Shown here in pieces: positions 1-55,505 of a stretch of DNA of 56,220 bases. Every line of letters starts with the position of its first letter. Positions within the stretch are counted from its first letter, which is position 1. The stretch lies in the UHGV virus genome UHGV-0008794. One strand, written 5' to 3'. The stretch comes from a virus. A model generated the notes under the pieces. It was not told the origin of the DNA, did no database searches, and worked only from the letters and a program-made list of their open reading frames with translations. A program made the translations under genes and the position numbers.

Positions 1-74
1 ATGGAGATTTCCTACGTCCCCATTTCATACCAAGGACACCGTAGTGCATTAAATAGTCTGGATATTGGTACATG
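1..74 (-). CDS. MYQYPDYL-family small protein, 5' partial (only N-terminus in window; ATG at 72-74, gene runs off window start)
   Basis: Revcomp of 1-74 translates MYQYPDYLMHYGVLGMKWGRRKSP; nt 15-74 identical to 446-505 and 3483-3542; strong RBS GGAAGGAGGAATC just upstream (75-90). Confidence 0.6.
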
Positions 75-166
75 ATTCCTCCTTCCTATTTAATCTATTT
101 ACTTTTTCGATTTAGGAATTTGATCCAATCGAGATTGTATAATGCTAACTCGCTACGGAGTGTTGT

Positions 167-505
167 TTATAATAATTCAGGACCAGGGTTCTTTTTCTTA
201 TAACTTTTAATAAATTTATCAACATCTTTTGAAGACTTAAAGTTTTGTTTATCCAATTCTGACAATAAAACTTTACCGTAATTAGCTAGAGCCAATTGTG
301 ATTTTCCTTTTCTTATAGCAACACTATCATTAGCCATTTTGCCATAAGAAACGTTCTCTTTTCCAAACGTCTCGAATTTATTAATGTCTCTAGAATACTG
401 GCGCTTAACCTTGGCAACTTTCTTAGCAGCTCGGCGTTCACGTCTACGTCCCCATTTCATACCAAGGACACCGTAGTGCATTAAATAGTCTGGATATTGG
501 TACAT
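167..505 (-). CDS. MYQYPDYL-family small basic protein (112 aa)
   Basis: ORF track; conserved N-terminus MYQYPDYLMHYGVLGMKWGRRR; K/R-rich remainder; upstream CTGAAAATTCAG(AG)7TCAAATC leader instead of canonical SD. Confidence 0.7.
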   Translation of the reverse strand: MYQYPDYLMHYGVLGMKWGRRRERRAAKKVAKVKRQYSRDINKFETFGKENVSYGKMANDSVAIRKGKSQLALANYGKVLLSELDKQNFKSSKDVDKFIKSYKKKNPGPELL

Positions 506-547
506 GATTTGACTCTCTCTCTCTCTGAATTTTCAGGAGAGATTATC

Positions 548-763
548 CTAAACTCTCCAATTATCAGGAAGAATATCAGTTAACTTTAAATCTTTTGCTC
601 GTTTCTTTATCCATTTCTTTACAGCTGGCTTATTAACACCTCTACCATAAGAAGAAATGGCGTTTTTTAAATCAGATTTATTTCGTATAGGATAACCGCC
701 ATCAGACATAGCTTTTCCTTGCTTTGCCAACTTTTCTCGTTCTTCAGAAGAAAACTTAGTCAT
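548..763 (-). CDS. hypothetical small basic protein (71 aa)
   Basis: ORF track; compact spacing to TerL stop; RBS GGAGATAAG upstream. Confidence 0.5.
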   Translation of the reverse strand: MTKFSSEEREKLAKQGKAMSDGGYPIRNKSDLKNAISSYGRGVNKPAVKKWIKKRAKDLKLTDILPDNWRV

Positions 764-773
764 AGCTTATCTC

Positions 774-2519
774 CTATTCAAATGAATCTTTATTAAGTTT
801 ATATGCAATGTAAGCATCCATCATTGCTGCAACCGAGTCGATTTTATCGTCTCTACGCTGTTTTGCAAGCTTTTTGTTACCATTAGTATCTTCAATAGTA
901 ATACAATTACCCATGCAAAATTCCATCAATTCTTCATCAAATAAAAGAAGACGATTCTCAGCCAATTTCTTCAATTCACCTAAAGGAACCGATTCTGTTT
1001 TAGCTCCCTGAATAACTTTTTCTATTCCAAAAGGACCGTTCTCAGTTTGCCATCTCTGAACAAAATCTTTAGCATTATAAGGATCATACCCAAAAGCACA
1101 AACATCATATTCTTTTTCATTTATGAATTGATCGAGATCATCATAGACTTCATTCATATCTAAAGTTACACAATCAAGGACTATCAAAGACCCTTCATTC
1201 ATAAAATCTTCATATTTCAAACGAGTAGCAATAGAAAGTTTATTCATTGTATCAGATGAAATATAGCAACGGGTTTTAACGCCATACCGTTCTTTTGATA
1301 AAGGAAATAAAAAAGTAAAAGCACAGAAGTCATCGCCTTGCGATAAGTCGGCTCCCATAGCACATGGTAATTGCCAAAAATCACGATGACGATGAACTTT
1401 AGTTTCTTCGTAAGTAAAGAAGAATGTAAAACCTTCCATTGGAAGACCAAAACGCTTAGCAAGAATATCGTTACGAGCAGAAGGAACCTTCTCAGCACGT
1501 TCAACATCCAATTGATATGTTTCATAGGTAACGGTTTTACCAATATTTGGAGCAGCCTTCATCCACATTGATGGGTCGGCTACTTCTTGAACACTATCAA
1601 GTTTATAATACCAAATGGAAACATGCGGATTCTCGTATTCGCCTTTTAGAATATCCATAAGTTCCATTTTAATACTGTCGCCAACACCATTACGAACGGT
1701 TCCTTCCGAACTCGTAGCCACAATAAGCCAATCATCTAGTTTAGAAGCGCCTTGTTCTGTTGCACCCACAACATCTTCACGAGTGTTTCCGGATAGCCAT
1801 TCATCGATAGTCGTATACTTAGGTCGACTACCCTGGATCTTATCAATAGACATTGGTCGAGATTCCAAAAGGGAATTCGTAAGAAAGTTTTCAATTCCCT
1901 TTTTTGTTGAAGACAACTTAACTCTATCCGCTTTACTTCCCGTAGTATTCTGAAGAGAACCTTCTGTTAAGAACTTAAATACTGGGCCAAGAGATCTAGC
2001 AATAGCAGTTCTTATTGGTGCCAATACCTCATCTGCTTGAGCAAGCGTTGGTGCCATTGTCATCTGAGTAGTTGTTTCGGTGTCGACTACAAGTCCGTAA
2101 GCTTGAATCGACGATGCATACAAAGACTTGGCACTACCGCGAGAGACGATCAAATATTGTTTATTAATAAGTCGTTTTTTCTTACGTTTAAGAACGTAAC
2201 GACCACCATGACCATCTTCAAAAGGTTCATAAACAGAACGCTCAACGAAATAATACCAACCAAATATCTGTTCGGCCCACAACTTAAATGTATCAAGCAG
2301 ATGAAGAGATGAACCATCGGTTAATGTTAGTTCGTTTTCACAAAACTTAATATAACCTTCAACGGCTTTATCATCGTAATAGTAACGAGGATCTAGAATA
2401 AGATTGTCTATACGATTCATTTCCATTGACACTTCTCGGCATACCGGAATCTCCCCAGCTATAACAGCATCTCGGAATTGCCCGTAATAGATAGGAGTTG
2501 CAGTGTTTGAAAGTGTCAT
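774..2519 (-). CDS. terL: terminase large subunit
   Basis: 584-aa ORF; N-terminal ATPase with Walker-A-like VSRGSAKS; C-terminal acidic nuclease-like region; size typical. Start moved to ATG (M4) with AGGTGA RBS; track M1 is GTG. Confidence 0.75.
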   Translation of the reverse strand: MTLSNTATPIYYGQFRDAVIAGEIPVCREVSMEMNRIDNLILDPRYYYDDKAVEGYIKFCENELTLTDGSSLHLLDTFKLWAEQIFGWYYFVERSVYEPFEDGHGGRYVLKRKKKRLINKQYLIVSRGSAKSLYASSIQAYGLVVDTETTTQMTMAPTLAQADEVLAPIRTAIARSLGPVFKFLTEGSLQNTTGSKADRVKLSSTKKGIENFLTNSLLESRPMSIDKIQGSRPKYTTIDEWLSGNTREDVVGATEQGASKLDDWLIVATSSEGTVRNGVGDSIKMELMDILKGEYENPHVSIWYYKLDSVQEVADPSMWMKAAPNIGKTVTYETYQLDVERAEKVPSARNDILAKRFGLPMEGFTFFFTYEETKVHRHRDFWQLPCAMGADLSQGDDFCAFTFLFPLSKERYGVKTRCYISSDTMNKLSIATRLKYEDFMNEGSLIVLDCVTLDMNEVYDDLDQFINEKEYDVCAFGYDPYNAKDFVQRWQTENGPFGIEKVIQGAKTESVPLGELKKLAENRLLLFDEELMEFCMGNCITIEDTNGNKKLAKQRRDDKIDSVAAMMDAYIAYKLNKDSFE

Positions 2520-2582
2520 GGATTTCACCTACTTCATTATATTTTTTCTCAACTTTTTAATTCCGATTTTACACTACTATTT

Positions 2583-2622
2583 GTCAAGATAGGATTCGAA
2601 CCTATACTCCTTAAGGATTATA
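2583..2622 (-). pseudogene. tRNA-Leu-like 3' fragment (variable arm + T-arm + partial acceptor, no 5' half)
   Basis: minus-sense TCCTTAAGGAGTATAGGTTCGAATCCTATCTTGAC closely mirrors variable-arm/T-arm of the intact tRNA-Leu at 4526-4609; no matching 5' acceptor/D/anticodon arms. Confidence 0.35.
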
Positions 2623-2624
2623 CA

Positions 2625-2996
2625 TTAGATAAACCCTTTGGTTGCAAGAAATACAGCTCCAGCAGTACCAATAGCGCCGCCTGCTACTGTTGCAATAGAT
2701 CCGCGTTTTGACACTTCTTTATTCAATGCGTTTGCATATTTAGCAGTCAATAGTCGGCCATCAGATTTAGCCTTAGATATTACCTGATGATTTTTATTTG
2801 TGTCATGTTTAGCTCCTCCAGCTTTAACATCTTTTCGCCATTGAAGAGCTTCTTCATCAGAAATTCTAGATTCGCTTTTATTAAGACGTTTTGACATTTG
2901 CTTTTTAGACCGACCAATAAGTATCTGTCTACGTCTCTGTCCCCACTTCATGCCTTTAATGCCATGGTGAGCAAGATAATCTGGATATTGGTACAT
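2625..2996 (-). CDS. MYQYPDYL-family paralog with C-terminal glycine-rich TM segment (123 aa)
   Basis: N-terminus MYQYPDYLAHHGIKGMKWGQRRR; C-terminus VAGGAIGTAGAVFLATKGFI hydrophobic; (CT)5 leader upstream. Confidence 0.65.
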   Translation of the reverse strand: MYQYPDYLAHHGIKGMKWGQRRRQILIGRSKKQMSKRLNKSESRISDEEALQWRKDVKAGGAKHDTNKNHQVISKAKSDGRLLTAKYANALNKEVSKRGSIATVAGGAIGTAGAVFLATKGFI

Positions 2997-3020
2997 GATT
3001 TGACTCTCTCTCTGAATGTG

Positions 3021-3542
3021 TTATGCATTAGATAAAAGTTCACCAACGGTAAGACCGGATTTGGTTTTCTTTTTGGCGTATTTACCAAGAATATCGTCTA
3101 CGGATTTTTGCCCAGTATTAACGTAATTATCCCAAGCCTTTCTTTCAGAAATCTCCGACTTTCCACTCGGTATATTTGAAAGGTAATGATCCTCTAAACC
3201 TTCTTGCCATTTTCTATACGACTTACTTCCCTTTTCAAAAGGATTACTTTTATCACGGTCAGCTTGCTTTTTTGCTTTAGCCATACGTCGGTCAAAATCT
3301 TTTTCTGATTTATCAAAAGCTTTAGACCATTTATCACGAGATGATTTTACATTACTCTCATGCCTCGTATATTCGGACGTACCTCGAACAGCAGAATACG
3401 TATCACTAACTTGTTTACTGCGATTGTAAGCTTTATTAGCTACTTTTTTAATATGCTTTGCCGATTTTTTTTGAGCCCTGCGTTGTCCCCATTTCATACC
3501 AAGGACACCGTAGTGCATTAAATAGTCTGGATATTGGTACAT
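3021..3542 (-). CDS. MYQYPDYL-family paralog (173 aa from internal ATG)
   Basis: Track ORF starts earlier (MSVEGGIM..) but GGAAGGAGGAATC RBS directly precedes the MYQYPDYL ATG; first 57 nt identical to other copies. Confidence 0.65.
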   Translation of the reverse strand: MYQYPDYLMHYGVLGMKWGQRRAQKKSAKHIKKVANKAYNRSKQVSDTYSAVRGTSEYTRHESNVKSSRDKWSKAFDKSEKDFDRRMAKAKKQADRDKSNPFEKGSKSYRKWQEGLEDHYLSNIPSGKSEISERKAWDNYVNTGQKSVDDILGKYAKKKTKSGLTVGELLSNA

Positions 3543-3961
3543 GATTCCTCCTTCCACGGACAAGTATCATGCGGTTTACGAACAATAGGATCTGATGGGA
3601 GGAGACTCTGATTACCATAATGAATAGCTTCGTGTGTTTTGTGAGAAACACAAATTACGTTATCCATTGAAAAGATTAACGGATCACGATCTTCGATTTG
3701 TTCGGATGTTATAGGATTAATATGATGGATGATTATTCGCCCAACAATATTATAACCTTCAAGTCCCATATCAAAACCTTGATCACGAATGATTACAAGA
3801 TTGCGAAACGAACGCCATTCTTGCGACCAATACAAAGCTTGGTTAAGATATCGATCAAATCCAAACGTTTCGCTTCCAACACATCCATTCAATTTCAAAT
3901 ACTTAAATCGATCTGTATAGTTCTGGATTTTCATCAACTCAGAATAACTCTTCAATGTCAT
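3518..3961 (-). CDS. HNH homing-type endonuclease
   Basis: HNH signature GLEGYNIVGRIIIHHINPITSEQ...NVICVSHKTHEAIH (His-Asn-His with CxxH); start trimmed to internal ATG (M44) to avoid 150-nt overlap with upstream ORF. Confidence 0.7.
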   Translation of the reverse strand: MTLKSYSELMKIQNYTDRFKYLKLNGCVGSETFGFDRYLNQALYWSQEWRSFRNLVIIRDQGFDMGLEGYNIVGRIIIHHINPITSEQIEDRDPLIFSMDNVICVSHKTHEAIHYGNQSLLPSDPIVRKPHDTCPWKEESCTNIQTI

Positions 3962-4379
3962 TGTCGTCACTTCCACGATAACCACGAAATGCTTTAAGAG
4001 CATCTTCATAAAGTTTAAGGTTATCTTTCTCAGATTCGATCTTCGCGCTCTTTGCTTGAAGAAGTTCGTTTTCACTTTTAAGTTTTTCATTCTCCAATTG
4101 AGTTCGCGTCGAACCGAGTTTAAGATAATGAACTAAAACCGATGGACTTGCAGTGCCATCTAAAATTTGTTTTTCGGCAAGATCGATGGCTGCTGATATA
4201 AGTTGATTCTCTCTTGCTTCAACTGTCAAAGCTGGAGCTCGACGCTTCTTTTTAGCAGTTGCCACCGCTTTTCGCCTCTCTTTCTTGAAATTGTCGCATA
4301 CTTCTATAAAAGAACTTCCGAGCAGAAGACCGCTTTTAATGGGTTTCTTGAAAGGAGAAAAGGAGAACTGGGTCACCAC
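3939..4379 (-). CDS. putative small terminase subunit / DNA-binding packaging protein (basic N-terminal HTH-like region + C-terminal coiled coil)
   Basis: 146 aa; KKKRRAPALTVEARENQLISAAIDLAEK helix-turn-helix-like; leucine-heptad C-terminus; position next to HNH and tRNAs near terL. Confidence 0.3.
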   Translation of the reverse strand: MVTQFSFSPFKKPIKSGLLLGSSFIEVCDNFKKERRKAVATAKKKRRAPALTVEARENQLISAAIDLAEKQILDGTASPSVLVHYLKLGSTRTQLENEKLKSENELLQAKSAKIESEKDNLKLYEDALKAFRGYRGSDDNDIEELF

Positions 4380-4448
4380 TACCAGTTTTTGTTTTTAACT
4401 CGGAAGTTCTTTTATAGAAGTATGAAGGTGTAAACTCCAAAAATATGA

Positions 4449-4524
4449 TTGGTGCGGGGTGACGGATTCGAACCGACAACCAAGAGATTATGAGTCACCT
4501 GCTCCACCCTTGAGCTAACCCCGC
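4449..4524 (-). tRNA. tRNA-Met (anticodon CAT), CCA encoded
   Basis: minus-sense GCGGGGTTAGCTCAAGGGTGGAGCAGGTGACTCATAATCTCTTGGTTGTCGGTTCGAATCCGTCACCCCGCACCA; cloverleaf with anticodon loop CTCATAA. Confidence 0.8.
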
Positions 4525-4525
4525 A

Positions 4526-4609
4526 TTGGTACCTCCGATGGGATTCGAACCCATACTCCTTAAGGAAACGGATTTTAAGTCCGTCGTGTCTGCCGTTCCA
4601 CCACGGAGG
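4526..4609 (-). tRNA. tRNA-Leu (anticodon TAA), long variable arm, CCA encoded
   Basis: minus-sense GCCTCCGTGGTGGAACGG...GGACTTAAAATCCG...TTCCTTAAGGAGTATGGGTTCGAATCCCATCGGAGGTACCA; anticodon loop CTTAAAA. Confidence 0.8.
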
Positions 4610-4631
4610 CGATTATAGGAAGAATCGGTGT

Positions 4632-4994
4632 TTACTTTTGTCGCAACGAATACTTTCTAGTTGAAACGTCGTAAACTACAACATATTTTTCTTGTGCTTT
4701 CTTTATATACGAATTGGTAGTCTTTGCATAATGATTGGCGTATTTTTGAAGTTGTTTTGCATTATCTTGAGCATGTTTGATTTGAGCGTACTTTTGACCA
4801 TACGCAATAGGCCCAGCCTCTCGAGCAGAAGCATCACGTTTTTTTGCTTCTATTTTCCAGGCATTGGCCTTTTGTTGATACCGGTCTGCTTTCTTAGCCT
4901 TACGATTTAATCGTGAAGTTATAACCTTTTTACGTACACCCCATTTCATGCCTGGGATACCGTAGTGCATTAAGTGGTCTGGATATTGATACAT
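4632..4994 (-). CDS. MYQYPDYL-family paralog (120 aa)
   Basis: N-terminus MYQYPDHLMHYGIPGMKWGVRKK (diverged at a few nt); (CT)7 leader upstream. Confidence 0.65.
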   Translation of the reverse strand: MYQYPDHLMHYGIPGMKWGVRKKVITSRLNRKAKKADRYQQKANAWKIEAKKRDASAREAGPIAYGQKYAQIKHAQDNAKQLQKYANHYAKTTNSYIKKAQEKYVVVYDVSTRKYSLRQK

Positions 4995-5152
4995 GATTTG
5001 ACTCTCTCTCTCTCTGAATTTTCAGAGGAAAACCCTATCTCTAAATTCAAAATTCCATTTTGACCCCCGGAGAATTTTTGAAGACCCGCGCGATGAAGGG
5101 AGGGGGTATTTTTTGCGAAACCACCTCTCCCCCCACCTTTGAATAAGATATA

Positions 5153-5398: not shown

Positions 5399-8098
5399 CT
5401 ATACTGTAAGTGCTTTCTGAATAGTAGATGTTGAGACGCCAAGACTATCAGCTATCTCAGCAAGGGTATAACCATTAGCCTCAAGAGCTTTAGCTTTCGA
5501 TACTTTGCCTGGGCTCATGCCTTTAAACTCTCTAGGCATAGCTAACTGTTTAAGAGTATCTAGATCCGAGTTGTTGATGATCTGCTTAAGTTTGTTAGAA
5601 GAGATAGCACCAGCTTGAATAGCTTCCCATTCAGAAGACGTTATCTGTATCTGTTGTTTACCAGCCCCCGTTTTAGCACGAGCCTTAATAAGAGCTCTGG
5701 ATTTAAGCTTTTTAATATCATCACTATCTAGATTAGGATTTGCATCTCGTACAGCTTTAACTTCGGCATTGGCTAATAGCTGGGCCTTTCTTTCTAAAGG
5801 TCTATTCTTTAATGCTGTGTTAAGCTTAGCATCCAAAGAAGAAACCTCTTTGTTATACTTCTTCTTAGCCTCAGGAGAATACGGAATTGGCTTGGTATTA
5901 CGAGACTGGATACGGGCTTGATTTGCTAGTGATTTTAATTTATTAGCATGTTCAGCATATACACTTTCAATCATAGTTCCAGAAGACAAAGAATATGCAT
6001 CACTTGTGTCCGCCATCTTTGTAGTCTTCTGTAAACGAAGAACTTCTTTCCCTGATTTATTCGTGTATGTTTCGCCAGTCTCTCGAAATATCTTTTCACC
6101 ACGGTTATAACGCGTCAATTCTTCAGGAGTCATATTCTTAGTGCTTGTAATTTCTTTTCTTACAGGCACTCGTTTATCACCTGAAGCTCGAGAAATAAGA
6201 GTTGAAGCTCCTGCATTTTCTCGACCTTGATATTTCTTCTTCAAAGCGCGAATATTATTATCAATCTCCGATTGTTTATAATTTAAATTATGCTTCTCGG
6301 CATCAATAACAACCATTGAATGACGAACTGCTGCCGCAATTTCATTCGGATCCGCACCTCGAATAGTCATATCAGTAATTAGATTTGAAACATCGCCCAT
6401 TTGACGTTGTTTATTAAATCCAGAACCTTTATCGCCAGTACGAATCATTCCAGGATATGCTGGATATGAAACCTTAGGATCAAAATCTTTCAAACCTTTC
6501 AATGGATCTGACGTTCGAATATTCGCACCACTCATTGGAATAACAAGAACTGTATCACCATCAAAGTCCGCACCAGACAAACGCTCAGCAACTTTAGGAT
6601 TAATACCGACAGCATCTTTAGCATTATGAATAAGACTATTAGCCGTTTTATGCTTATTATTCACTGTAAGTTCAGGAATCTCAAATGTTCCTCCATGAGG
6701 ATATCGAACCAAAGCTACTCGTTCACCATTACGAAATGAAGGAGCATAAATCTCGGTGTCTTTCATATCAGGGAATGGTAAAATAACTTTGGATGCCTGA
6801 CGAGGAAGACCGGCAGCTTTTAGATGAACAGCAGCTGAATCGCAACCATCAGCAAATTTTTCAAGAAGCTGTTGTTTGATAATGGGATTCTCTAATTTTA
6901 TAATCTCATTATATTCTTCAGCTTTAAGATCATAAGCCAATTTCAATTGCTTTTTTGCAAGCATGGGAGACTGTTTAGATAACATCTGAGAAGATAAGCT
7001 TTTTCGCCAAACGTTCCAATCGCCTTCTTCGTTAACGATATTTAAAGCCGATTGCTGTTTTTTACCATTCTTGTCGATGTAATATCGCTGAGCCATGACT
7101 AAGCGATCTTCACCCTTAATGGTTGCGCCAAAAGGATTATCAGAATCTTTCTTCATAGGTTTTAAAACACTATGGTCTTTTTCTCCGAGCATCGGAGTTC
7201 CTTTAGATTTGTTAGTGTTAAAGACAATGTCAACGCCTTCGGGCATGTTATCGCTATACATAGCCATACCCTTAATATAATGAGTGCCATCAACAGCAAT
7301 TCGAACTTGAGCATAACGAGCGTTACCTAAGGAAATATCATCAACACCTCGACGAAGCTCAATAACGCCATCTTTATCGATGCCACCATCCTCTTTGTAG
7401 TTAATTTTAACTCGCTTAGAGGATATACTTACTGGAGCCTTTAAAGAATCATATGAAGTTCCTTTATCGCTCGAATGATATCCAGGAAATTCAATTTTGT
7501 CTCGATTCTTAGAAACTTCAGAATATGTAGTACCTGGTTTAGCAAGAACCATGATCGATGTTTTTTTACCAGTGCCCATCTGTTCGGTCTGAATATAATG
7601 TCGAGTATATCCTTCTTCTTCCAATTTACGAATTGAATTATCCAGAACGTTACGACTTACACCCATTTGATTCTCAACGCCACCGCCAACATCAATATAA
7701 CCTTTCTTGTCAACAGCTTTTTTAAGCACATCGGCAGTCATGGTTGTCTTGTTTGCGCGATCTGTAGCTTGAGGTTTCAAATAATTACGAACAGTAGATT
7801 CATTAGTTCCCATTTTTTCAGCAATAGCGACATTAGAATATCCTTTTGCTTTTAACTTTTGAGCTTCTGAAACTCTAGCTGCATATACTTCATTTCGAGC
7901 ATTAGAATATTGAGAACGATATTGTTTAACGGTTAGACCGCATGCGTCAGCAACTTCTTTCTCGCTAAGTCCGCTTTTCTTTAATTCATTAGCATAATTA
8001 TAAAAGTCCGAATCGCGCTGATATGGATCATCACCGCTTCCCCACGGATATCGACCGGAATGGCGCTTAGTGCCATAATGATATAGTTCATCAAACAT
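5399..8098 (-). CDS. putative single-chain two-barrel (multisubunit-type, YonO-like) DNA-dependent RNA polymerase with HTH modules
   Basis: 899 aa; VRYPHGGTFEIPEL...SGADFDGDTVLVIPMSG matches the universal beta-prime active-site segment (RQPTLHRLGIQAFEP...NADFDGDQMAVHVPLS); several sigma-region-4-like HTH stretches at N- and C-termini; start ATG overlaps upstream stop (TAATG). Confidence 0.5.
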   Translation of the reverse strand: MFDELYHYGTKRHSGRYPWGSGDDPYQRDSDFYNYANELKKSGLSEKEVADACGLTVKQYRSQYSNARNEVYAARVSEAQKLKAKGYSNVAIAEKMGTNESTVRNYLKPQATDRANKTTMTADVLKKAVDKKGYIDVGGGVENQMGVSRNVLDNSIRKLEEEGYTRHYIQTEQMGTGKKTSIMVLAKPGTTYSEVSKNRDKIEFPGYHSSDKGTSYDSLKAPVSISSKRVKINYKEDGGIDKDGVIELRRGVDDISLGNARYAQVRIAVDGTHYIKGMAMYSDNMPEGVDIVFNTNKSKGTPMLGEKDHSVLKPMKKDSDNPFGATIKGEDRLVMAQRYYIDKNGKKQQSALNIVNEEGDWNVWRKSLSSQMLSKQSPMLAKKQLKLAYDLKAEEYNEIIKLENPIIKQQLLEKFADGCDSAAVHLKAAGLPRQASKVILPFPDMKDTEIYAPSFRNGERVALVRYPHGGTFEIPELTVNNKHKTANSLIHNAKDAVGINPKVAERLSGADFDGDTVLVIPMSGANIRTSDPLKGLKDFDPKVSYPAYPGMIRTGDKGSGFNKQRQMGDVSNLITDMTIRGADPNEIAAAVRHSMVVIDAEKHNLNYKQSEIDNNIRALKKKYQGRENAGASTLISRASGDKRVPVRKEITSTKNMTPEELTRYNRGEKIFRETGETYTNKSGKEVLRLQKTTKMADTSDAYSLSSGTMIESVYAEHANKLKSLANQARIQSRNTKPIPYSPEAKKKYNKEVSSLDAKLNTALKNRPLERKAQLLANAEVKAVRDANPNLDSDDIKKLKSRALIKARAKTGAGKQQIQITSSEWEAIQAGAISSNKLKQIINNSDLDTLKQLAMPREFKGMSPGKVSKAKALEANGYTLAEIADSLGVSTSTIQKALTV

Positions 8099-8993: not shown

Positions 8994-10262
8994 TTATAGC
9001 ACATGATTTTTCTGCGAATCAAGATTCTCTATAAAAATGGACTCATTGAAGTTTTTCTTAGATTGAATCGCTCTGAATATACTTGCGTCAATCGATGAGT
9101 TAGATCTCAGTCGATAATAATACAGATCGGAATATGGAGTATTGATCCTATCAATACGACCAGCAGCCTGTTCCATAATTTTGTATGAGTAATTCAATGA
9201 GTAAAATACAATCACATTGGTTTCCACACAATTCCAACCTTCAGCGCCGGCTGTATACTGAACCAAATATACCCATCGATCGCCATCTAAAATAGCCTCA
9301 TGCTTATGCCCATTCCACTCGGACCAAGGAATTTGATTGTTCTCTAATAGTTCTCTCAAGATTTCCAACTCATAATCGAAATTGTAGAATACGATTACCT
9401 TAGAATTCAAATTGAGAATACTAAGCAGTTCTGCAGTTCTAGAAATATCTGAATTAACAATTTTTCTAAAAACAAGACATGCTTCTCCAGCATTACGAAT
9501 TGGTCTTCCTTCAAATACGTGCCATTTATCTTTTGAAGCTTGCTTATAAAGCTCCTTGTCATAATCAACTAGTATATCATTAAAATGTCTAATAGCTTTC
9601 TTTTGATATTCCATAGTAACAACAATTTGCTTTCGATATTCTTCTAATCGATGACAATTAATGTAACGTTCAATTTTAGGATATTTGGAAAATCGACTAA
9701 AGACAGCATGTTCTCTAAGAAATTCAGTTTTATTTTTATAGAACCCATTCGCTAAGAACACCGGAATATAATCAGACCAAGTATCACCTGGCGTAGCAGA
9801 AAGCAGTATCCAATGATTGCTTTTAGAAATCTTGAGAAACGACTTAACCCATTTACCAGAACCGACTAAACGCTGTTCGTCAAATATAAAGAACGAATCT
9901 TTAACATTAACATATTTTGCGATATTATTCCAACTATCGATAACCAATTTTGTTCCCCAATAACTATCAGTCTTAGATAATAAAAATGGAAGACATTCTT
10001 GGTCCCACTCGCAAGTATTTCGTTTACGAGCAGTTGTAATAATATACAAATCTTTTGGTTTAGTCATTGGTAAAAGTTCGCCATCTTGAATTTTGCCTCC
10101 GCATTCATGACAAAAATAATAGGCGATGGAAGTTCTGGACTTGCCAGATCCGACCCCACCACATAAGATGGAGCCAGACCTTAGCTCGTCCATTGCTTTA
10201 CTCTGATGCGGATATAAACTAATATTCATCCGAGATATCAGCATACTTGTCGGCAAATTCAT
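8994..10262 (-). CDS. SF2 (DEAD/SNF2-like) helicase
   Basis: Walker A GGVGSGKS, DEQR Walker B (FIFDEQRL), motif III LLSATPG; start uncertain (track 10271 is TTG; ATGs at 10262 and 10229). Confidence 0.65.
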   Translation of the reverse strand: MNLPTSMLISRMNISLYPHQSKAMDELRSGSILCGGVGSGKSRTSIAYYFCHECGGKIQDGELLPMTKPKDLYIITTARKRNTCEWDQECLPFLLSKTDSYWGTKLVIDSWNNIAKYVNVKDSFFIFDEQRLVGSGKWVKSFLKISKSNHWILLSATPGDTWSDYIPVFLANGFYKNKTEFLREHAVFSRFSKYPKIERYINCHRLEEYRKQIVVTMEYQKKAIRHFNDILVDYDKELYKQASKDKWHVFEGRPIRNAGEACLVFRKIVNSDISRTAELLSILNLNSKVIVFYNFDYELEILRELLENNQIPWSEWNGHKHEAILDGDRWVYLVQYTAGAEGWNCVETNVIVFYSLNYSYKIMEQAAGRIDRINTPYSDLYYYRLRSNSSIDASIFRAIQSKKNFNESIFIENLDSQKNHVL

Positions 10263-16592: not shown

Positions 16593-17537
16593 TCAGATCA
16601 GATCATAAATAACGCCATCAACGTTGAAATCAAGAAGAATGGATGGCTCATAACCATTTACGAAGTCACGTTTGTTAACATCGTTAATTTGGAAGATATT
16701 GAAATCAACATAGCCATCTCCATCTTCGCCAATATTACCATCATTCCAAATCCAACCAACAACGGCACCTGCTGCGGAACGCTTAAAGCCGAGATTATCG
16801 TAAACTTCGTTCAGGAAAAGATGACCACGAGAACGAAGCATATCGTTCAGCATATTCTGAGCAGTCTCCAGAAAGTATTTGTTCTGCTCAGGGCTCTTAG
16901 ACCAATTGGGATTTGCCTCGTCGAAGAATCGAGCGTACTGACTTACTTGAATACCGGGAATAACTTCAGTCTTAGTCTTTACGGTCTTAGTTTTACCATT
17001 TTCGGTCTTGATCTTTTCAGATTTGGTCTCAATCTCGGTTCCATAATAAAAATGACGATCTTGATCTTCGCCAAGCTCCGTGCGAACTCGATCTCGATAG
17101 TTGTTAAACGTCTCTTCACAAAGCTTATATGCTGCTACGAGAGCTACATTACGCTTCTTCATGATCCCATGTGCGCCGAAGAAGCAAGAAATACCCAGAA
17201 CGGTCAGAGTTACGCCTGGAGCATATTCCTTCACAAGCTTCTTACCGCAATTAATCTTATTGATGAGAATATCCTTCTTGTAATCTTCTTCAGAATATTC
17301 TACACCTTCTTCGAGTTCCACGTCACCATTGTGAACAGACTCGATCTTCTCCTTGTTTTCCTTATTTTCGTCTAGAATCTCATCAACCTTAAGTGTGGCT
17401 TTAGCCGTAGCTACCGTACCAGCGACAATAGCTACCGTACCAGCGGCCATCAAGATTTCAGGACTATATTTCTTAGCGATCAGTAGTGCTCGACTACCAT
17501 TCTTAATAGCAATATCTTTAATTGCTCCAATGTTCAT
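16593..17537 (-). CDS. membrane protein, paralog family A (full length, 314 aa)
   Basis: N-terminal TM pair and AHGIMKKRNVALVAAYKLCEETFNNY segment homologous to 20173-20988 product; C-terminal domain (VSQYARFFDEANPNWSKSP...GWIWNDG...LLDFNVDGVI) duplicated as ORF 29017-29346. Confidence 0.55.
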   Translation of the reverse strand: MNIGAIKDIAIKNGSRALLIAKKYSPEILMAAGTVAIVAGTVATAKATLKVDEILDENKENKEKIESVHNGDVELEEGVEYSEEDYKKDILINKINCGKKLVKEYAPGVTLTVLGISCFFGAHGIMKKRNVALVAAYKLCEETFNNYRDRVRTELGEDQDRHFYYGTEIETKSEKIKTENGKTKTVKTKTEVIPGIQVSQYARFFDEANPNWSKSPEQNKYFLETAQNMLNDMLRSRGHLFLNEVYDNLGFKRSAAGAVVGWIWNDGNIGEDGDGYVDFNIFQINDVNKRDFVNGYEPSILLDFNVDGVIYDLI

Positions 17538-20172: not shown

Positions 20173-20988
20173 TTATCTCCTATAATCTACTTGAGGTTCT
20201 GTGTTATAAACAACTTTCAAACAAGGTTCTCCATTTCCTGCTTTATGGCCGCCTCGAACTGAAATATCCAAAAGTTGATCACCGTTCCAACCTGCAAACT
20301 CGCCGAGATCAATTTCTGGAAGTCCAAGATACATATACCATTCATTTACGTCTAGATAGTAATCATCATTCAATCGATGGTTAAAATCGTTCATAGCAGA
20401 AAATATATGGTTCTCATTAGATCTAAAATATCGACCAGAAAGTTCATCATAACAAAGATATACTCCATACCCAAGACCCATAGAAAGATCCATTTCACTT
20501 TGAGCTTCTTGCTCTGCTTCTTTTAGAACTTCTTTATTTTGGTCATCTCCAACAATTTCTGCAATCTTCTCTTGATATTTATCGAGAGTCTTTTCCGCAA
20601 GAGTACAAGCTCCAGCCAAAGCAAGATTTCGTCCGTGAGAGATTCGATAAGCGCCAATAATACATGCAGTTGACAAAACAATCATTCCGATAGTTGGAAC
20701 ATAACATTTCCAACTAGCTTCGATAATTTCTTTAGTTGTTAGAATAGAAAGATTGTCGCTTAAAGTTCTATTTTCGCTTTTTGGATCGACTTCTTCTGCT
20801 TTTTTATCAAGAAGCTCAATGGCTTTCGGAGTGGCCTTGATGCCAAATATAACGGCTGTTCCATAACCAACGATACCAAAACCTGTTAAAAACGCTGGAG
20901 AATTCTCACCAACAAATCTACCAACGTTCGTAACGCCTTCTTTGATAATGTTTGCGTTAATCTTCAAGATTCTCTCCAATCTTATCAT
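20173..20988 (-). CDS. membrane protein, paralog family A (about 270 aa)
   Basis: TM helices plus AYRISHGRNLALAGACTLAEKTLDKYQEKI homologous to 16593-17537; start uncertain (ATG at 20988 lacks SD; TTG with GGAGAG RBS just downstream). Confidence 0.5.
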   Translation of the reverse strand: MIRLERILKINANIIKEGVTNVGRFVGENSPAFLTGFGIVGYGTAVIFGIKATPKAIELLDKKAEEVDPKSENRTLSDNLSILTTKEIIEASWKCYVPTIGMIVLSTACIIGAYRISHGRNLALAGACTLAEKTLDKYQEKIAEIVGDDQNKEVLKEAEQEAQSEMDLSMGLGYGVYLCYDELSGRYFRSNENHIFSAMNDFNHRLNDDYYLDVNEWYMYLGLPEIDLGEFAGWNGDQLLDISVRGGHKAGNGEPCLKVVYNTEPQVDYRR

Positions 20989-21394
20989 TTTCAATAAGCT
21001 TCTCCAAATATGCAATCGCATAACCTATATGCATAAGCTCTATGTCACTTCCGAGTTGAATTCGAGTTATTTCGACTTCGGCAGCATACAGACATTCGTT
21101 ATTTTTAATGTAATTGGTACGACCAAGTTTAATCCAACTTGTAAGTTTTTCATCGTCAAAATATGAAGCTACCCTTTTGAGATACCAAATGGCTTTCTCG
21201 ATATCTTGCTTGAAATTACCTTTATCTTGACAACGTTCAACATACTTGAATGCGTTGAGCAAACAAAAATGCCTAACAAATGAAACACCGAATGCAGCTT
21301 CCATTTTTTCAATACATTCAAGTTGGCCTGGTTTACAATAGTGACTAGGATGATTAACCGGATCATCCTCGATTTTCTTACAAGTTTCTGTCAT
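20957..21394 (-). CDS. DUF3310-like phage protein (conserved VNHPSHY motif)
   Basis: 145 aa; DDPVNHPSHYCKPG hallmark; start moved past ATGAAAGGAG leader to MTETCKK. Confidence 0.5.
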   Translation of the reverse strand: MTETCKKIEDDPVNHPSHYCKPGQLECIEKMEAAFGVSFVRHFCLLNAFKYVERCQDKGNFKQDIEKAIWYLKRVASYFDDEKLTSWIKLGRTNYIKNNECLYAAEVEITRIQLGSDIELMHIGYAIAYLEKLIENDKIGENLED

Positions 21395-28771: not shown

Positions 28772-28960
28772 TCAATTATTATTTAGGAACTTTTCCAAGT
28801 CTTCTATACTCTTTATATTCTCTGAATTTTCCTCAGATATTTTTATGCGGATCAATGTTGTATCATAAGCCATGTTTATCCTTAAATTAATTAGGTATTT
28901 ATACTTAAAAAGCACAAACCCCTGCTTAAATAGCGTCTCAGCGCCTCGCTGATCAGGCAT
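28772..28960 (-). CDS. hypothetical small protein (62 aa)
   Basis: ORF track. Confidence 0.35.
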   Translation of the reverse strand: MPDQRGAETLFKQGFVLFKYKYLINLRINMAYDTTLIRIKISEENSENIKSIEDLEKFLNNN

Positions 28961-29016
28961 TATGTAATAATACTTTTACACTATAAAAACAAGAATTTAT
29001 GCTAAAATGGTCATTT

Positions 29017-29346
29017 TTAAATAACGCCATCAACGTTGAAATCAAGAAGAATGGATTGTTTATGATCATTTATAAAATCGATATTGAAAATAATATAGCC
29101 GGCGCCATCATTCCAAATCCAACCAACAATATCACCTTCTTTAGAATTCTCGAAACCGAGATAATCGTAAACTTCATTCAAGAACAACTGACCACGAGAA
29201 CGAAGAATATCATTAACCATATTTTGAACAATCTCCAGAAAGTATTTGTTCTGCTTAGGACTCTTGGACCAATTAGGATTTGTCTCGTCAAAGAGTCGAG
29301 CGTACTGACTTACTTGGTTATTAGAAATGATTTCAATTTTATTCAT
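29017..29346 (-). CDS. stand-alone copy of paralog-family-A C-terminal domain (109 aa)
   Basis: protein about 75% identical to C-terminus of 16593-17537 product; nucleotide blocks such as ATAACGCCATCAACGTTGAAATCAAGAAGAATGGAT shared between 16604-16641 and 29023-29060. Confidence 0.55.
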   Translation of the reverse strand: MNKIEIISNNQVSQYARLFDETNPNWSKSPKQNKYFLEIVQNMVNDILRSRGQLFLNEVYDYLGFENSKEGDIVGWIWNDGAGYIIFNIDFINDHKQSILLDFNVDGVI

Positions 29347-29929: not shown

Positions 29930-30066
29930 GGTTCTTTCTCCTTTCAAGAAATTTGGTGAAAAAATTAACACGACAAAAGTATAGCAGGACTCAGATCCTG
30001 CAGCTTCGTCCGTAGACGACGTTGTTCCGTTTTCAACTATATACTTTCCCCGCGTTAAAAAAGAAG

Positions 30067-30157
30067 AATGGCTAATGTGTACGTCCGGTTTGACTCTTAA
30101 TCTTCATCGCGTACTGTTACCATCGCCAGGGACTAATGCCCTACATTAGCTTCCTAC
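30067..30157 (-). ncRNA. candidate small non-coding RNA B (promoter copy 6 -> ~90 nt -> T-run), relatively GC-rich, internal hairpin CTAATG-TAGGG-CATTAG
   Basis: no ORF, bracketed by conserved promoter and TTTTTT; inference. Confidence 0.3.
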
Positions 30158-30163
30158 CTCTTC

Positions 30164-30187
30164 ATTATAAGACGTGAAAAAATTGCG
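30164..30187 (-). promoter_or_regulatory. conserved promoter motif copy 6 (CGCAAT-N12-TATAAT)
   Basis: minus-sense CCTCGCAATTTTTTCACGTCTTATAATGAAGAG; 30-nt core identical to copy 7. Confidence 0.5.
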
Positions 30188-30191
30188 AGGT

Positions 30192-30307
30192 AAAAAAAGA
30201 GGAATATTTGGATGGACTCGAACCATCTCTGAGCTACCTCATTCTTTTCATCTGAATTTAATCAGCTCGTGTGCAGCCAGTATTCTTCCTGAGCAATCTT
30301 TCCTCTT
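30192..30307 (-). ncRNA. candidate small non-coding RNA A (promoter copy 7 -> ~110 nt -> U7), closed by 8-bp stem AAGAGGAA/TTCCTCTT and containing tRNA-like D-loop (TAGCTCAGA) fused to a T-arm (GATGGTTCGAGTCCATC)
   Basis: no ORF; tRNA-like sub-elements but no anticodon arm; inference. Confidence 0.35.
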
Positions 30308-30308
30308 C

Positions 30309-30332
30309 ATTATAAGACGTGAAAAAATTGCG
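30309..30332 (-). promoter_or_regulatory. conserved promoter motif copy 7 (CGCAAT-N12-TATAAT)
   Basis: minus-sense TTTCGCAATTTTTTCACGTCTTATAATGAAGAGG. Confidence 0.5.
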
Positions 30333-30403
30333 AAAAAAATATACGCCATGTAATTTATACACAGCGTATATCTCAAATGTCATAAACCTGATGAAATTTC
30401 TAC

Positions 30404-54206: not shown

Positions 54207-55505
54207 CTAAGTATACTGATTTTGTCCATCGACTGGATAATCTTCGTATCCAGAAGAACCTTGATCATCTACCGAATAGTTAGTAGAATCTGAACCGTAG
54301 TCAGCATTTGGGTCGATAAGATTTCTATTTCTAAGTTCATCAGAAGATTCATCCTCTGAAGGTTTGAACCCAAGAGCGGTTCTAAACTCGTTAGGAGTAA
54401 GAATCTCATTACGACTTAATGTATCAGCCATTTGAGCAATTTGTCCGACTGTCATATACCTAAACGGATCTTGGAACGTCATAATAGTTTGACCTTGAGT
54501 TCGAGCCGTTTTAGTAAGAAACTTACGAATAAGTTCATCTTTAATTGCGTCGATAATTGGAGCAACAGTTCGTTGATAATAATTGTTCATCGTCTCAGCA
54601 TTTGCTGTTCCGTTAAGAATGGTTTCATCAATACACAACTGAGTATAAAGTTGCTTGGTTAAATCGTTGATCTGTGACATCAAATTGTTATCGATTGAAC
54701 GATTCAATTGAGTAACTTTCTCCGTGGCATCAATATATGCAATGCCATACTTAGAGTTCGTCAATTGTGCTTCGATACTTCGTTTCCTAGTATCTGCTCG
54801 CTTCTCTTGAGTTTCGTTCTTGATTATATATGGAAGCTGGACAATCATGTCAAGTTTACTAGAATTGTTTTTAGCATCAGCATCATCTAACAATCCAAGT
54901 TTATACACAAGTCGACTCATTGTTGAATTCTTCTCATTCATAACCGAATAGAATGGATTTTCAACAATAGCAACGAAAGATTTAGGAAGCGTTATTGTTT
55001 GAAACTGTCCTTTTTGATCATTGTAAAGTTTGACATCGACATGTTTTGGATACCAAGCTACAATTTTTCCAACACGCATTGATTCGATTCTTAACGAATT
55101 TGTTTCGTAAGGATCGTCATACGTATCGACAGGAACAATTGCTATGCAGCCTTCATCTAGAAGAGATAAAGCAATATCTAATTTAAAAGCAAAACCGCTT
55201 TGATCGATATTAGCTTCCACGTTTAAACAATCGTTTAATGTGGATTTGATGGTTTCTTTATATCGATCTTGATCGTCAACTCGAACATGTTTGAAATCTG
55301 TAGACGCTACGTCTAAAGCTATTCGAGTATAAATCGCTGAAATAATGGTTCTTTCTTTTCCAGTTATTATCTTTTTGCGATCTGGACGATATCCCCATGT
55401 TCCAGAGCCAATATCTAAAGAAACCGGATAATAATCCTTTTTCTCTTCATTTGAAACGAAGGCATTCCAAGCATGCTTAAGACGATTCGAAAATGTCTCA
55501 GCCAT
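54207..55505 (-). CDS. portal-like protein
   Basis: 432 aa, size/position upstream of protease-capsid gene; acidic C-terminal tail. Confidence 0.4.
   Translation of the reverse strand: MAETFSNRLKHAWNAFVSNEEKKDYYPVSLDIGSGTWGYRPDRKKIITGKERTIISAIYTRIALDVASTDFKHVRVDDQDRYKETIKSTLNDCLNVEANIDQSGFAFKLDIALSLLDEGCIAIVPVDTYDDPYETNSLRIESMRVGKIVAWYPKHVDVKLYNDQKGQFQTITLPKSFVAIVENPFYSVMNEKNSTMSRLVYKLGLLDDADAKNNSSKLDMIVQLPYIIKNETQEKRADTRKRSIEAQLTNSKYGIAYIDATEKVTQLNRSIDNNLMSQINDLTKQLYTQLCIDETILNGTANAETMNNYYQRTVAPIIDAIKDELIRKFLTKTARTQGQTIMTFQDPFRYMTVGQIAQMADTLSRNEILTPNEFRTALGFKPSEDESSDELRNRNLIDPNADYGSDSTNYSVDDQGSSGYEDYPVDGQNQYT

Follow-up and report, generated by a model that had tools for sequence, protein, structure and literature searches.

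Candidate tRNA-derived small-RNA cassettes arranged in tandem at the late-to-early boundary of a human-gut siphophage genome

Introduction

What does a phage keep in a 474-nucleotide (nt) gap without genes, placed between its lysis genes and its first early genes? The gap lies in UHGV virus genome UHGV-0008794, a sequence of 56,220 nt that was analyzed at full length and is referred to here as the window. It is an essentially complete ~56-kb siphophage genome, that of a virulent-type human-gut phage, and all of its 79-80 genes are encoded on the minus strand. On that strand the gap, here called the island, runs from 30403 to 29930, between the stop codon of a 95-amino acid (aa) gene (30404), itself directly downstream of the holin gene, and the ATG of a 109-aa gene (29929). 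This position is the boundary between late and early genes. The identical sequence is present on independent ENA and Logan human-gut assemblies, so the island is not an assembly artifact.

Read in the direction of transcription, the island contains a late terminator, two promoter copies, three structured units that we call A, B, and C, and a short leader (Table 1). An earlier note on this DNA had described it as a gene-free, GC-enriched island carrying two promoter-to-terminator units for small RNAs, and the features it listed are all found where it had placed them once they are read on the minus strand, the only strand on which they are legible. The island is indeed free of genes: no open reading frame (ORF) in the sense direction exceeds 42 codons, one of 59 codons is present in antisense, and none has a conserved start. 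It is not enriched in GC, however, with a value of 0.394 against 0.386 for the window, which 36% of equal-sized windows match, and only units B (0.44) and C (0.48) are richer. The answer that we favor, with about even confidence, is that the island would be a tandem array of early small-RNA cassettes derived from tRNA, in which the helix that closes each RNA may double as a terminator or attenuator.

Results

The 109-aa protein that flanks the island has 42 homologs at 48-94% identity, and the contigs that carry them (L019-L036) belong to ~57-kb gut-phage genomes with a common layout of holin gene, 95-aa gene, variable slot, and 109-142-aa gene. Against these relatives, unit A is 94-95% identical at the nucleotide level to its counterparts in L022, L034, and L035, where the flanking genes are at 63-77%. 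Units B and C are each 95% identical to those of L028, with flanking genes at 63-75%, and in L020 unit C is 100% and unit B 85% identical, with the genes flanking unit C at 76-88%. Pairing was assessed by RNAalifold together with explicit pair counts. In type A, 27 pairs are paired in 99% of cells, compared with 31-56% in slid controls, and changes on both sides are seen at three pairs (6:108, 8:106, and 45:56), which only 12 of 500 shuffles reached. Two of these, 6:108 (A:U/G:C) and 8:106 (G:C/A:U), are double compensatory changes in the closing helix, and an internal hairpin shows the series U:A, C:A, C:G. A further type found in the relatives, B', maintains all of its 34 pairs, nine of which are variable, with one G:C to A:U swap in a hairpin that carries an invariant 10-nt loop, UAUGCGGGUG; the B'-type unit of L032 has lost 18 nt, namely the T-arm and the bases that flank it. 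Type B has a G:C to A:U swap in its D-position hairpin (L020) and wobble-preserving changes in a 7-bp acceptor-like stem. Together these data support the view that the units are real, selected, structured RNAs, and with conservation and compensatory changes in the relatives they confirm the earlier note where it saw structured segments directly behind the promoter copies, ending in T-runs.

Table 1. Position and make-up of the island features, with related and reference features of the window (RBS, ribosome-binding site)
Feature	Position	Strand	Description
Late terminator	30375-30334	-	intrinsic terminator at the end of the late (lysis) region; 17-bp hairpin then T7; fold z-score -5.7
Promoter copy 7	30333-30302	-	TCGCAATTTTTTCACGTCTTATAAT plus GAAGAGG; TATAAT at 30314-30309
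Unit A, ~117 nt	30308-30192	-	9-bp closing helix, two hairpins, UGAG-GUAG-CUCA hairpin, T-arm, T7
Promoter copy 6	30188-30157	-	identical to copy 7; TATAAT at 30169-30164
Unit B, ~107 nt	30163-30057	-	extended closing helix, acceptor-like stem, D-position hairpin, T-position stem, T6
Unit C, no promoter of its own	30054-29972	-	tRNA-shaped cloverleaf; ARAGORN "tRNA-???" at 30047-29975
Short leader, 42 nt	29971-29930	-	degenerate promoter-like remnant AATTTTTTCAC; RBS GAAAGGAG of the 109-aa gene, as read from the sequence
Cargo-free related element	9017-8935	-	same promoter type, then long perfect hairpin AGAAGAGGAGTAGAA...TTCTACTCTTC and T-run; RBS of the 97-aa/exonuclease/899-aa operon
TerL	774-2528	-	
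Portal	54207-55505	-	

Two tandem promoter copies with an identical core had been claimed for the island, and the identity in fact spans 31 nt (CGCAATTTTTTCACGTCTTATAATGAAGAGG; 30332-30302 and 30187-30157), where shuffled sequence gives an expectation of 0 matches. A motif scan of the window places both copies in a nine-member family, TCGCA-N14-TATAAT, that occurs on the coding strand only and mostly ~25 nt upstream of an RBS, and the same motif precedes protein cassettes and non-coding cassettes in ~10 related phages. A sigma-70-type promoter would combine a -10 TATAAT with a TTGACA-like -35 hexamer 16-18 bp upstream. Here the TATAAT is perfect, the conserved upstream element TCGCA is only 13-14 nt away, and no -35 hexamer is present at 16-18 bp in either copy, so a consensus scan misses both. 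Position nevertheless gives good support for a predicted promoter function, as the motif precedes gene starts and comes after terminators. The terminator that ends the late region had escaped the earlier note; none of 200 shuffles folds as stably, and it is conserved at 75-93% in the relatives. No consensus promoter copy was found by the motif scan between 30188 and 24980, so the transcripts that supply the first early operon, with its ~5 kb of early genes, must also come from copies 6 and 7, by read-through. Units B and C are located between the promoter and this operon, which by the same scan has no promoter of its own.

In unit A, the closing helix pairs 30308-30300 with 30204-30196 (5' GAAGAGGAA with 3' TTCCTCTT(T)) and is followed by the T7 run at 30198-30192, just as the earlier note had drawn the pairing of the 3' segment with the 5' end. 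The unit contains the string GAGGTAGCTCAGAGATGGTTCGAGTCCATCC (30240-30210), and with it the T-arm GATGG-TTCGAGT-CCATC at 30227-30211, which is a perfect tRNA T-arm without an anticodon arm, as had been noted for the transcript behind copy 7, and is invariant at 17 of 17 nt. The same note took the string for a tRNA D-loop consensus fused to the T-arm; the string is there, although its "D-loop" part can equally fold as a local 4-bp hairpin, UGAG-GUAG-CUCA. In unit A GGTAGCTCAG is joined via a single A to GATGGTTCGAGTCCATC, and in 54 genomes the two strings occur within real tRNA genes at a spacing of 30-55 nt, tRNA-Ile(GAU) of Exiguobacterium being one example, so that unit A resembles a tRNA with a ~34-nt internal deletion set inside a larger RNA. 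A genome scan with both halves returned generic tRNA-Ile/Lys-type sequence and pointed to no host. The acceptor 3' strand of a real tRNA is not present after the T-arm. In all four phages that carry type A a new promoter follows directly, so unit A cannot be a leader and would most simply be an autonomous small-RNA gene, a stand-alone cassette.

Unit B is built around a 7-bp acceptor-like stem, GCTAATG (30150-30144) with CATTAGC (30077-30071), and carries U8-A9-G10 and a D-position hairpin, AGGG/CCCT. At the T-arm position there is a 5-bp GTACG/CGTAC stem with a 26-nt insert, one base apart from the 7-bp stem; an anticodon arm and a T-loop are lacking. The unit ends with GCCATTCTTCTTTTTT, its T6 at 30062-30057. 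The hairpin CTAATG-TAGGG-CATTAG that the earlier note proposed can be drawn, but the relatives favor the pairing of GCTAATG with the distal CATTAGC and the AGGG/CCCT hairpin, in which the compensatory change of L020 falls. Unit C was overlooked in that note, which left its two-unit account incomplete. This unit has all four arms: the acceptor has 8 bp and the D-stem 3 bp, the anticodon-like loop reads GUCUACG, and the T position is taken by a hairpin of 5-7 bp without TΨC. Acceptor and T stems are contiguous. Position 37, however, is C, the anticodon stem consists of 4 bp and an A·A mismatch, and a TΨC loop is absent. A T-rich tract begins two bases after the closing helix, and the fold has a z-score of -3.8. 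The "tRNA-???" that ARAGORN assigns by default becomes Pyl(cta) at relaxed thresholds.

The tRNA content of the units was scored on a tRNA covariance model built from 40 real tRNAs. On it the real tRNAs of the phage reach 72 and 44 bits. No other non-tRNA match in 93 kb exceeds the 16-17 bits that unit C attains over its full length; for B' the score is 10-14 bits, between D-arm and T-arm, for unit A it is 13.6 bits, over the T-arm only, and unit B has no match. All four unit types retain the acceptor-strand/U8-A9-G10 junction ("...TAG"). Both real phage tRNAs, 25 kb from the units, encode CCA, which no tRNA-like unit does. A canonical cloverleaf has a 7-bp acceptor, a U8 junction, a D-arm, a 7-nt anticodon loop with U33 and a purine at 37, and a TΨC loop. 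None of the units conforms to it, since A has only the T-arm, B lacks the anticodon arm and T-loop, and C has C37 and no TΨC.

Known RNA families gave a similar picture. Rfam was searched over the whole window at gathering thresholds, over the island at E <= 10, and over four relatives at E <= 1, and only the two real tRNAs and chance-level matches were returned; within the island and the four relatives there was no tRNA (RF00005, gathering score 29 bits), tmRNA, YrlA or other Y RNA, T-box, leader, or riboswitch family. ARAGORN found no tmRNA, and unit C was its only default call in the island. The Infernal/Rfam comparison suggested in the earlier note yields a tRNA T-arm, at 13.6 bits on the model built here, and no tRNA, tmRNA, or other Rfam family. 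Its single mini-tRNA-like RNA without an anticodon arm corresponds to unit A, but the tRNA-derived modules are three and not one. No TROVE domain occurs among the 51 early-region proteins scanned, and the motif GNCGAAN0-1G is absent near the 5' ends of the units, which begin GAAGAGG; the sole GACGAAG is inside unit C. As for an attP site with a tRNA 3' fragment, the early-region proteins scanned include no integrase or recombinase family.

In the relatives, the variable slot consists of successive mini transcription units, which each start with the shared promoter motif and usually end in a hairpin and T-run that abut the next promoter. Protein cassettes have the form TATAAT-gaagtggaaacttttgaaaggag-ATG, and non-coding cassettes read TATAAT-GAAGAGGA... 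or GAAGGAGA..., extend over 75-115 nt, and finish with ...TCCTCTTC and a T-run. Type A is present in the window, L022, L034, and L035, and types B and C are both present in the window, L020/21, and L028. Type B' occurs in L022-L026, L028, and L034-36, its derivative without the T-arm (B'') in L032/33, and types D, E, and F in L029/30 and L020, the type E of L020 consisting of little beyond promoter and terminator. Types B, B', and B'' always stand directly upstream of an RBS with no promoter between, type C likewise always has a promoter on one side and an RBS on the other, and D, E, and F (L020/L029) are followed by a new or partial promoter.

Within L028 a second tRNA-like cassette, a B' with the T-loop TTCGATT, is found downstream of the first early gene (2840-2990), with B and C upstream in the same phage, so the cassettes occupy different positions in different genomes. 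In L034 and L035 (2134-2475), a public 113-aa gene call starts at the ATG in the promoter TATAATG and crosses the B' unit into the true gene of ~69 aa, a case of RNA units mis-annotated as protein-coding. DNA and protein searches with the island, core strings, and the 109-aa protein found no relatives among INPHARED phages or in IMG/VR. The D-loop/T-arm fusion pattern had 14 matches in IMG/VR, all unrelated, and none of the 113 matches to a 14-mer of the B' loop had a promoter or B' context, the five inspected lying in unrelated, protein-coding-looking sequence.

The closing helix itself starts at the first base after TATAAT in unit A, in B', and in the cargo-free unit at 9017, and in A and B it directly abuts the T-run (T6-T7). 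The hairpin at 9017-8935 is of the same GAAGAGG.../...CTCTTC kind as the closing helices of the island, and we take this element to be an attenuator-like leader with the predicted architecture of an island unit and no cargo. With a promoter, hairpin, and T-run found there without cargo, closing helix and U-run are best read as a terminator or attenuator module. A terminator scan calls none of the helices of A, B, and C, since each closes a structured "loop" of 75-100 nt.

Several other elements of the genome were recorded along the way. The genome also encodes a 2267-aa protein of tape-measure size, a GH25 endolysin, and a Dp1-type holin, and then a long series of small early and replication genes. 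The 899-aa protein encoded at 5399-8098 (minus strand) has sigma-70 region-4/helix-turn-helix (HTH) motifs only at its two ends, matches phrog_4291, labeled "RNA-dependent RNA polymerase," over its full length, and is ~53% identical, again at full length, to "HTH DNA-binding" proteins in 250 phage records, chiefly of Streptomyces, Arthrobacter, Gordonia, Lactococcus, and Faecalibacterium phages. In the actinophage records listed, the homolog is at the opposite genome end from a TerL ~73% identical to that of the window. A search of PDB found no relative. With HTH annotation alone in those 250 phages and no PDB relative, we make no claim that this protein is a phage RNA polymerase behind the unusual promoters.

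A non-coding block of ~95 nt (TGTTTTTATAGTGTAAAA.TATTATTACATAATGCCTGATCA.CGAGGCGCTGAGACGCTATTTAAGCA.GGGTTT) at ~28895-28992 (minus strand) is conserved across phages before different genes (L019 ~285-390, L027 ~2095-2200, and L029 ~1670-1775); in the window a doubtful ORF of 62 aa, with ACG in place of its ATG in L029, has a start that overlaps the block. The block may represent a second type of promoter with a leader or small RNA. On the minus strand of 18-5025, around the tRNA and terminase region, lie five scattered copies of a ~87-nt repeat that encode the small-protein N terminus MYQYPDYLMHYG..GMKWG (Pfam DUF7211, four members). Three DUF6353 paralogs are encoded on the minus strand at 16593-17537, 20173-21021, and 29017-29346; the third is short (109 aa) and has a 240-nt repeat at 82% identity in common with the first (16738-16977/29105-29344).

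Discussion

The features described above suggest how the island might work. After the late terminator, two identical early-type promoters would each run straight into an RNA of ~110 nt, whose first 9-20 nt, purine-rich and beginning GAAGAGG, would pair with its last nucleotides (...CCTCTTC) right before the U-run. The closing helix would both seal the RNA and serve as an intrinsic terminator or attenuator stem, and its "loop" would hold a tRNA-derived module: the T-arm in A, and the acceptor stem, U8-A9-G10, and D-position hairpin in B. Unit C would be a complete but degenerate cloverleaf. As B and C would share their promoter with the first early operon, small RNAs would arise by termination or processing and mRNA by read-through. 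Of the two promoter-to-terminator small-RNA units originally proposed, the conserved structured units with T-runs stand, but B and C probably act also as the 5' leader or attenuator of the early operon. Transcription starts, terminations, discrete transcripts, and an action in trans by tRNA mimicry are what we infer from this arrangement.

A number of points weigh against this scheme. The closing helix encloses ~95 nt, unlike canonical terminators, and the terminator scan misses it. The covariation comes from only 3-5 sequences per type and, together with the shuffle controls, is suggestive and not statistically decisive; pairing between a purine-rich and a pyrimidine-rich strand tolerates transitions easily, and recent exchange of cassettes between phages could partly explain the high conservation. 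A scan for duplexes of A, B, and C with 78 phage start regions gave nothing above shuffled RNAs, and hence no antisense target. Moreover, if TATAAT is a -10 element of the sigma-70 type, transcription would begin 6-9 nt (typically about 7 nt) downstream and leave the first 5-6 nt of the closing helices untranscribed, a stretch that includes the compensatory pair 6:108. A start closer to TATAAT is conceivable given that TCGCA is only 13-14 nt away, that the bases after TATAAT are always purine-rich, and that the real tRNA-Leu(UAA) at 4527-4612 (minus strand) begins 2 nt after a perfect TATAAT (cctataatcGCCTCCG).

The same lack of a consensus promoter copy in the motif scan between 30188 and 24980 that makes copies 6 and 7 feed the ~5 kb of early genes would suit a purely cis-acting explanation, in which A, B, and C form one long structured 5' leader whose terminator-like helices restrict or time read-through, possibly until a phage antiterminator lifts the block, and short RNAs are by-products that do nothing in trans. 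The invariable place of B, B', and B'' before an RBS and the cargo-free promoter, hairpin, and T-run ahead of the exonuclease/899-aa operon agree with it. We nevertheless hold it to be a minority possibility, because the promoters that come after A (4/4 phages) and after D, E, and F mean that these types regulate nothing downstream in cis, and because a plain hairpin would do for attenuation, yet the cargo is strongly conserved, down to the T-arm of unit A and the 10-nt loop of B'. Decay would account for the cargo differently. The units might be relics of tRNA genes or emptied cassettes that have kept promoter and terminator and have no present function, a notion suggested by the likeness of unit A to a tRNA-Ile-type gene with an internal deletion, the loss of the T-arm in B'', the near-empty type E of L020, and the gain and loss of cassettes for which the slot is a hot spot. 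It is an unlikely one, however, for units that are 94-100% identical where neighboring protein genes are 63-88% identical, for helices in which nearly all substitutions keep pairing, several of them through double changes, and for a unit C that is identical where its flanking genes differ by 12-24%.

Three other explanations appear very improbable. That unit C works as an amber-suppressor tRNA with anticodon CUA could be argued from the cloverleaf, with U33 and CUA in a 7-nt loop, that ARAGORN draws at relaxed settings and from the rank of this unit as best non-tRNA match to the tRNA model. With 16-17 bits against 44-72 for real tRNAs, no Rfam tRNA match at E <= 10, a faulty anticodon stem, C37, and no TΨC loop, it is a poor candidate, and we rejected it on stop-codon usage, as 19 of 79 ORFs, those for portal, tape measure, and TerL among them, use TAG as an ordinary stop. 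Equally hard to credit is an origin of replication that transcription would prime or activate. A gene-free, strongly transcribed, structured region at a module boundary would be similar to the origin transcript made from an early promoter in lactococcal phage c2, and the island offers repeated 31-mers, strong promoters, and structured transcripts by prediction, at the late/early junction of a genome transcribed in one direction throughout; yet the GC skew does not inflect at 30 kb, the repeats are copies of an ordinary promoter that recur elsewhere in the genome, and the content of the slot is freely swapped between relatives, protein cassettes included, which would be unexpected of an origin. 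Nor do we give much credence to micro-peptides, whether from a 12-codon TTG ORF in unit A (MLRKNTGCTRAD), which has a Shine-Dalgarno-like GAGGA 5 nt upstream and whose sole L022 substitution is synonymous, or from a 50-61-codon antisense ORF that crosses unit A and is open in the relatives as well. The micro-ORF covers only 39 of ~117 conserved nt, in the window the frame of unit B is already closed by a stop at codon 4, and indel lengths among the relatives are not divisible by three, while the antisense ORF, for which neither a start nor an RBS is conserved, shows non-synonymous changes and faces 79-80 genes that are all on the other strand; neither the antisense ORF of 59 codons nor the sense micro-ORFs were retained as coding, their starts not being conserved.

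If the island is an array of small-RNA cassettes, as we favor, the leading suggestion for a role in trans is mimicry of tRNA toward a tRNA-recognizing factor such as a processing enzyme, a defense nuclease, or a toxin. Structural prerequisites are there in the contiguous acceptor and T stems of C and in the 7-bp and 5-bp stems of B. More tentatively, and with considerable doubt, the RNAs could form a new class of modular decoys, each running from promoter to terminator and made of tRNA parts, that gut phages express at the start of infection. Their effect would be to titrate out or misdirect a host factor that recognizes the elbow or the acceptor end of tRNA, for instance a nuclease of a tRNA-targeting defense, a toxin that modifies the acceptor, or a processing enzyme. 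Such cassettes would then be swapped between phages like anti-defense genes, in a slot that also holds small accessory proteins.

RNA-based counter-defense by phages is known from few cases, such as complete phage tRNAs, RNA anti-CRISPRs, and pseudo-antitoxins. Phage T4 makes, alongside true tRNAs, stable RNAs of ~120-140 nt called "species 1" and "species 2," which have a tRNA-like terminal structure and unknown function, are encoded within the tRNA operon, and depend on tRNA-processing enzymes for their maturation; A and B, by comparison, each have their own promoter and T-run, are 25 kb from the real tRNAs, and are not known to be related to the T4 RNAs in sequence. The HK022 put element is a cis-acting antiterminator RNA of two simple stem-loops without tRNA features. 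With such elements and with attenuator leaders the island has in common a structured RNA right after an early promoter, a T-run, and then an operon, but unit A regulates no downstream gene in cis and there is no Rfam leader or riboswitch match.

In architecture, the units are closest to the YrlA-type Y RNAs, which have a terminal 5'-3' stem and a tRNA-like module that comprises T-arm and D-arm without a functional anticodon arm and are in some cases phage-encoded (Chen et al. 2014, PMC4201824). YrlA is defined by GNCGAAN0-1G near the 5' end, an rsr (Ro60) gene within ~4 kb, and an Rfam/Infernal match (PMC4201824). The terminal stem and a tRNA-like module lacking the anticodon arm are common to both, but motif, rsr neighbor, and model match are all missing in the island, and the T-arm precedes the D-arm in YrlA, the reverse of the order seen here. 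Complete, decodable phage tRNAs replace cleaved host tRNAs against tRNA-targeting defenses (PARIS, PMC11464382; retron effectors, PMC11555353). The island units are likewise tRNA-shaped, phage-carried, and proposed to act against tRNA-recognizing host factors, but as they are not functional tRNAs (0-17 against 44-72 bits) they could act only as decoys or competitors. Partial tRNAs outside intact genes, especially 3' halves with the T-arm, are known from prokaryotic genomes and are usually integration-site leftovers without promoter or selection (PMC9897764). Such fragments account for the origin of sequences like these and not for their conservation here, where they lie inside promoter-to-T-run units with covariation, conserved above the neighboring genes.

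On a conservative reading, the late-to-early boundary of these phages is organized as cassettes bounded by promoters and terminators, with terminator helices that bear cargo, and gene callers mis-annotate such RNA units as ORFs. The array occupies an accessory-gene hot spot of abundant human-gut phages. If the fuller reading is true, conserved, tRNA-derived, non-decoding RNAs with early promoters of their own would add a new type of phage small RNA, and A, B, B', and C would give concrete sequences with which to ask which tRNA-recognizing host factor is engaged.

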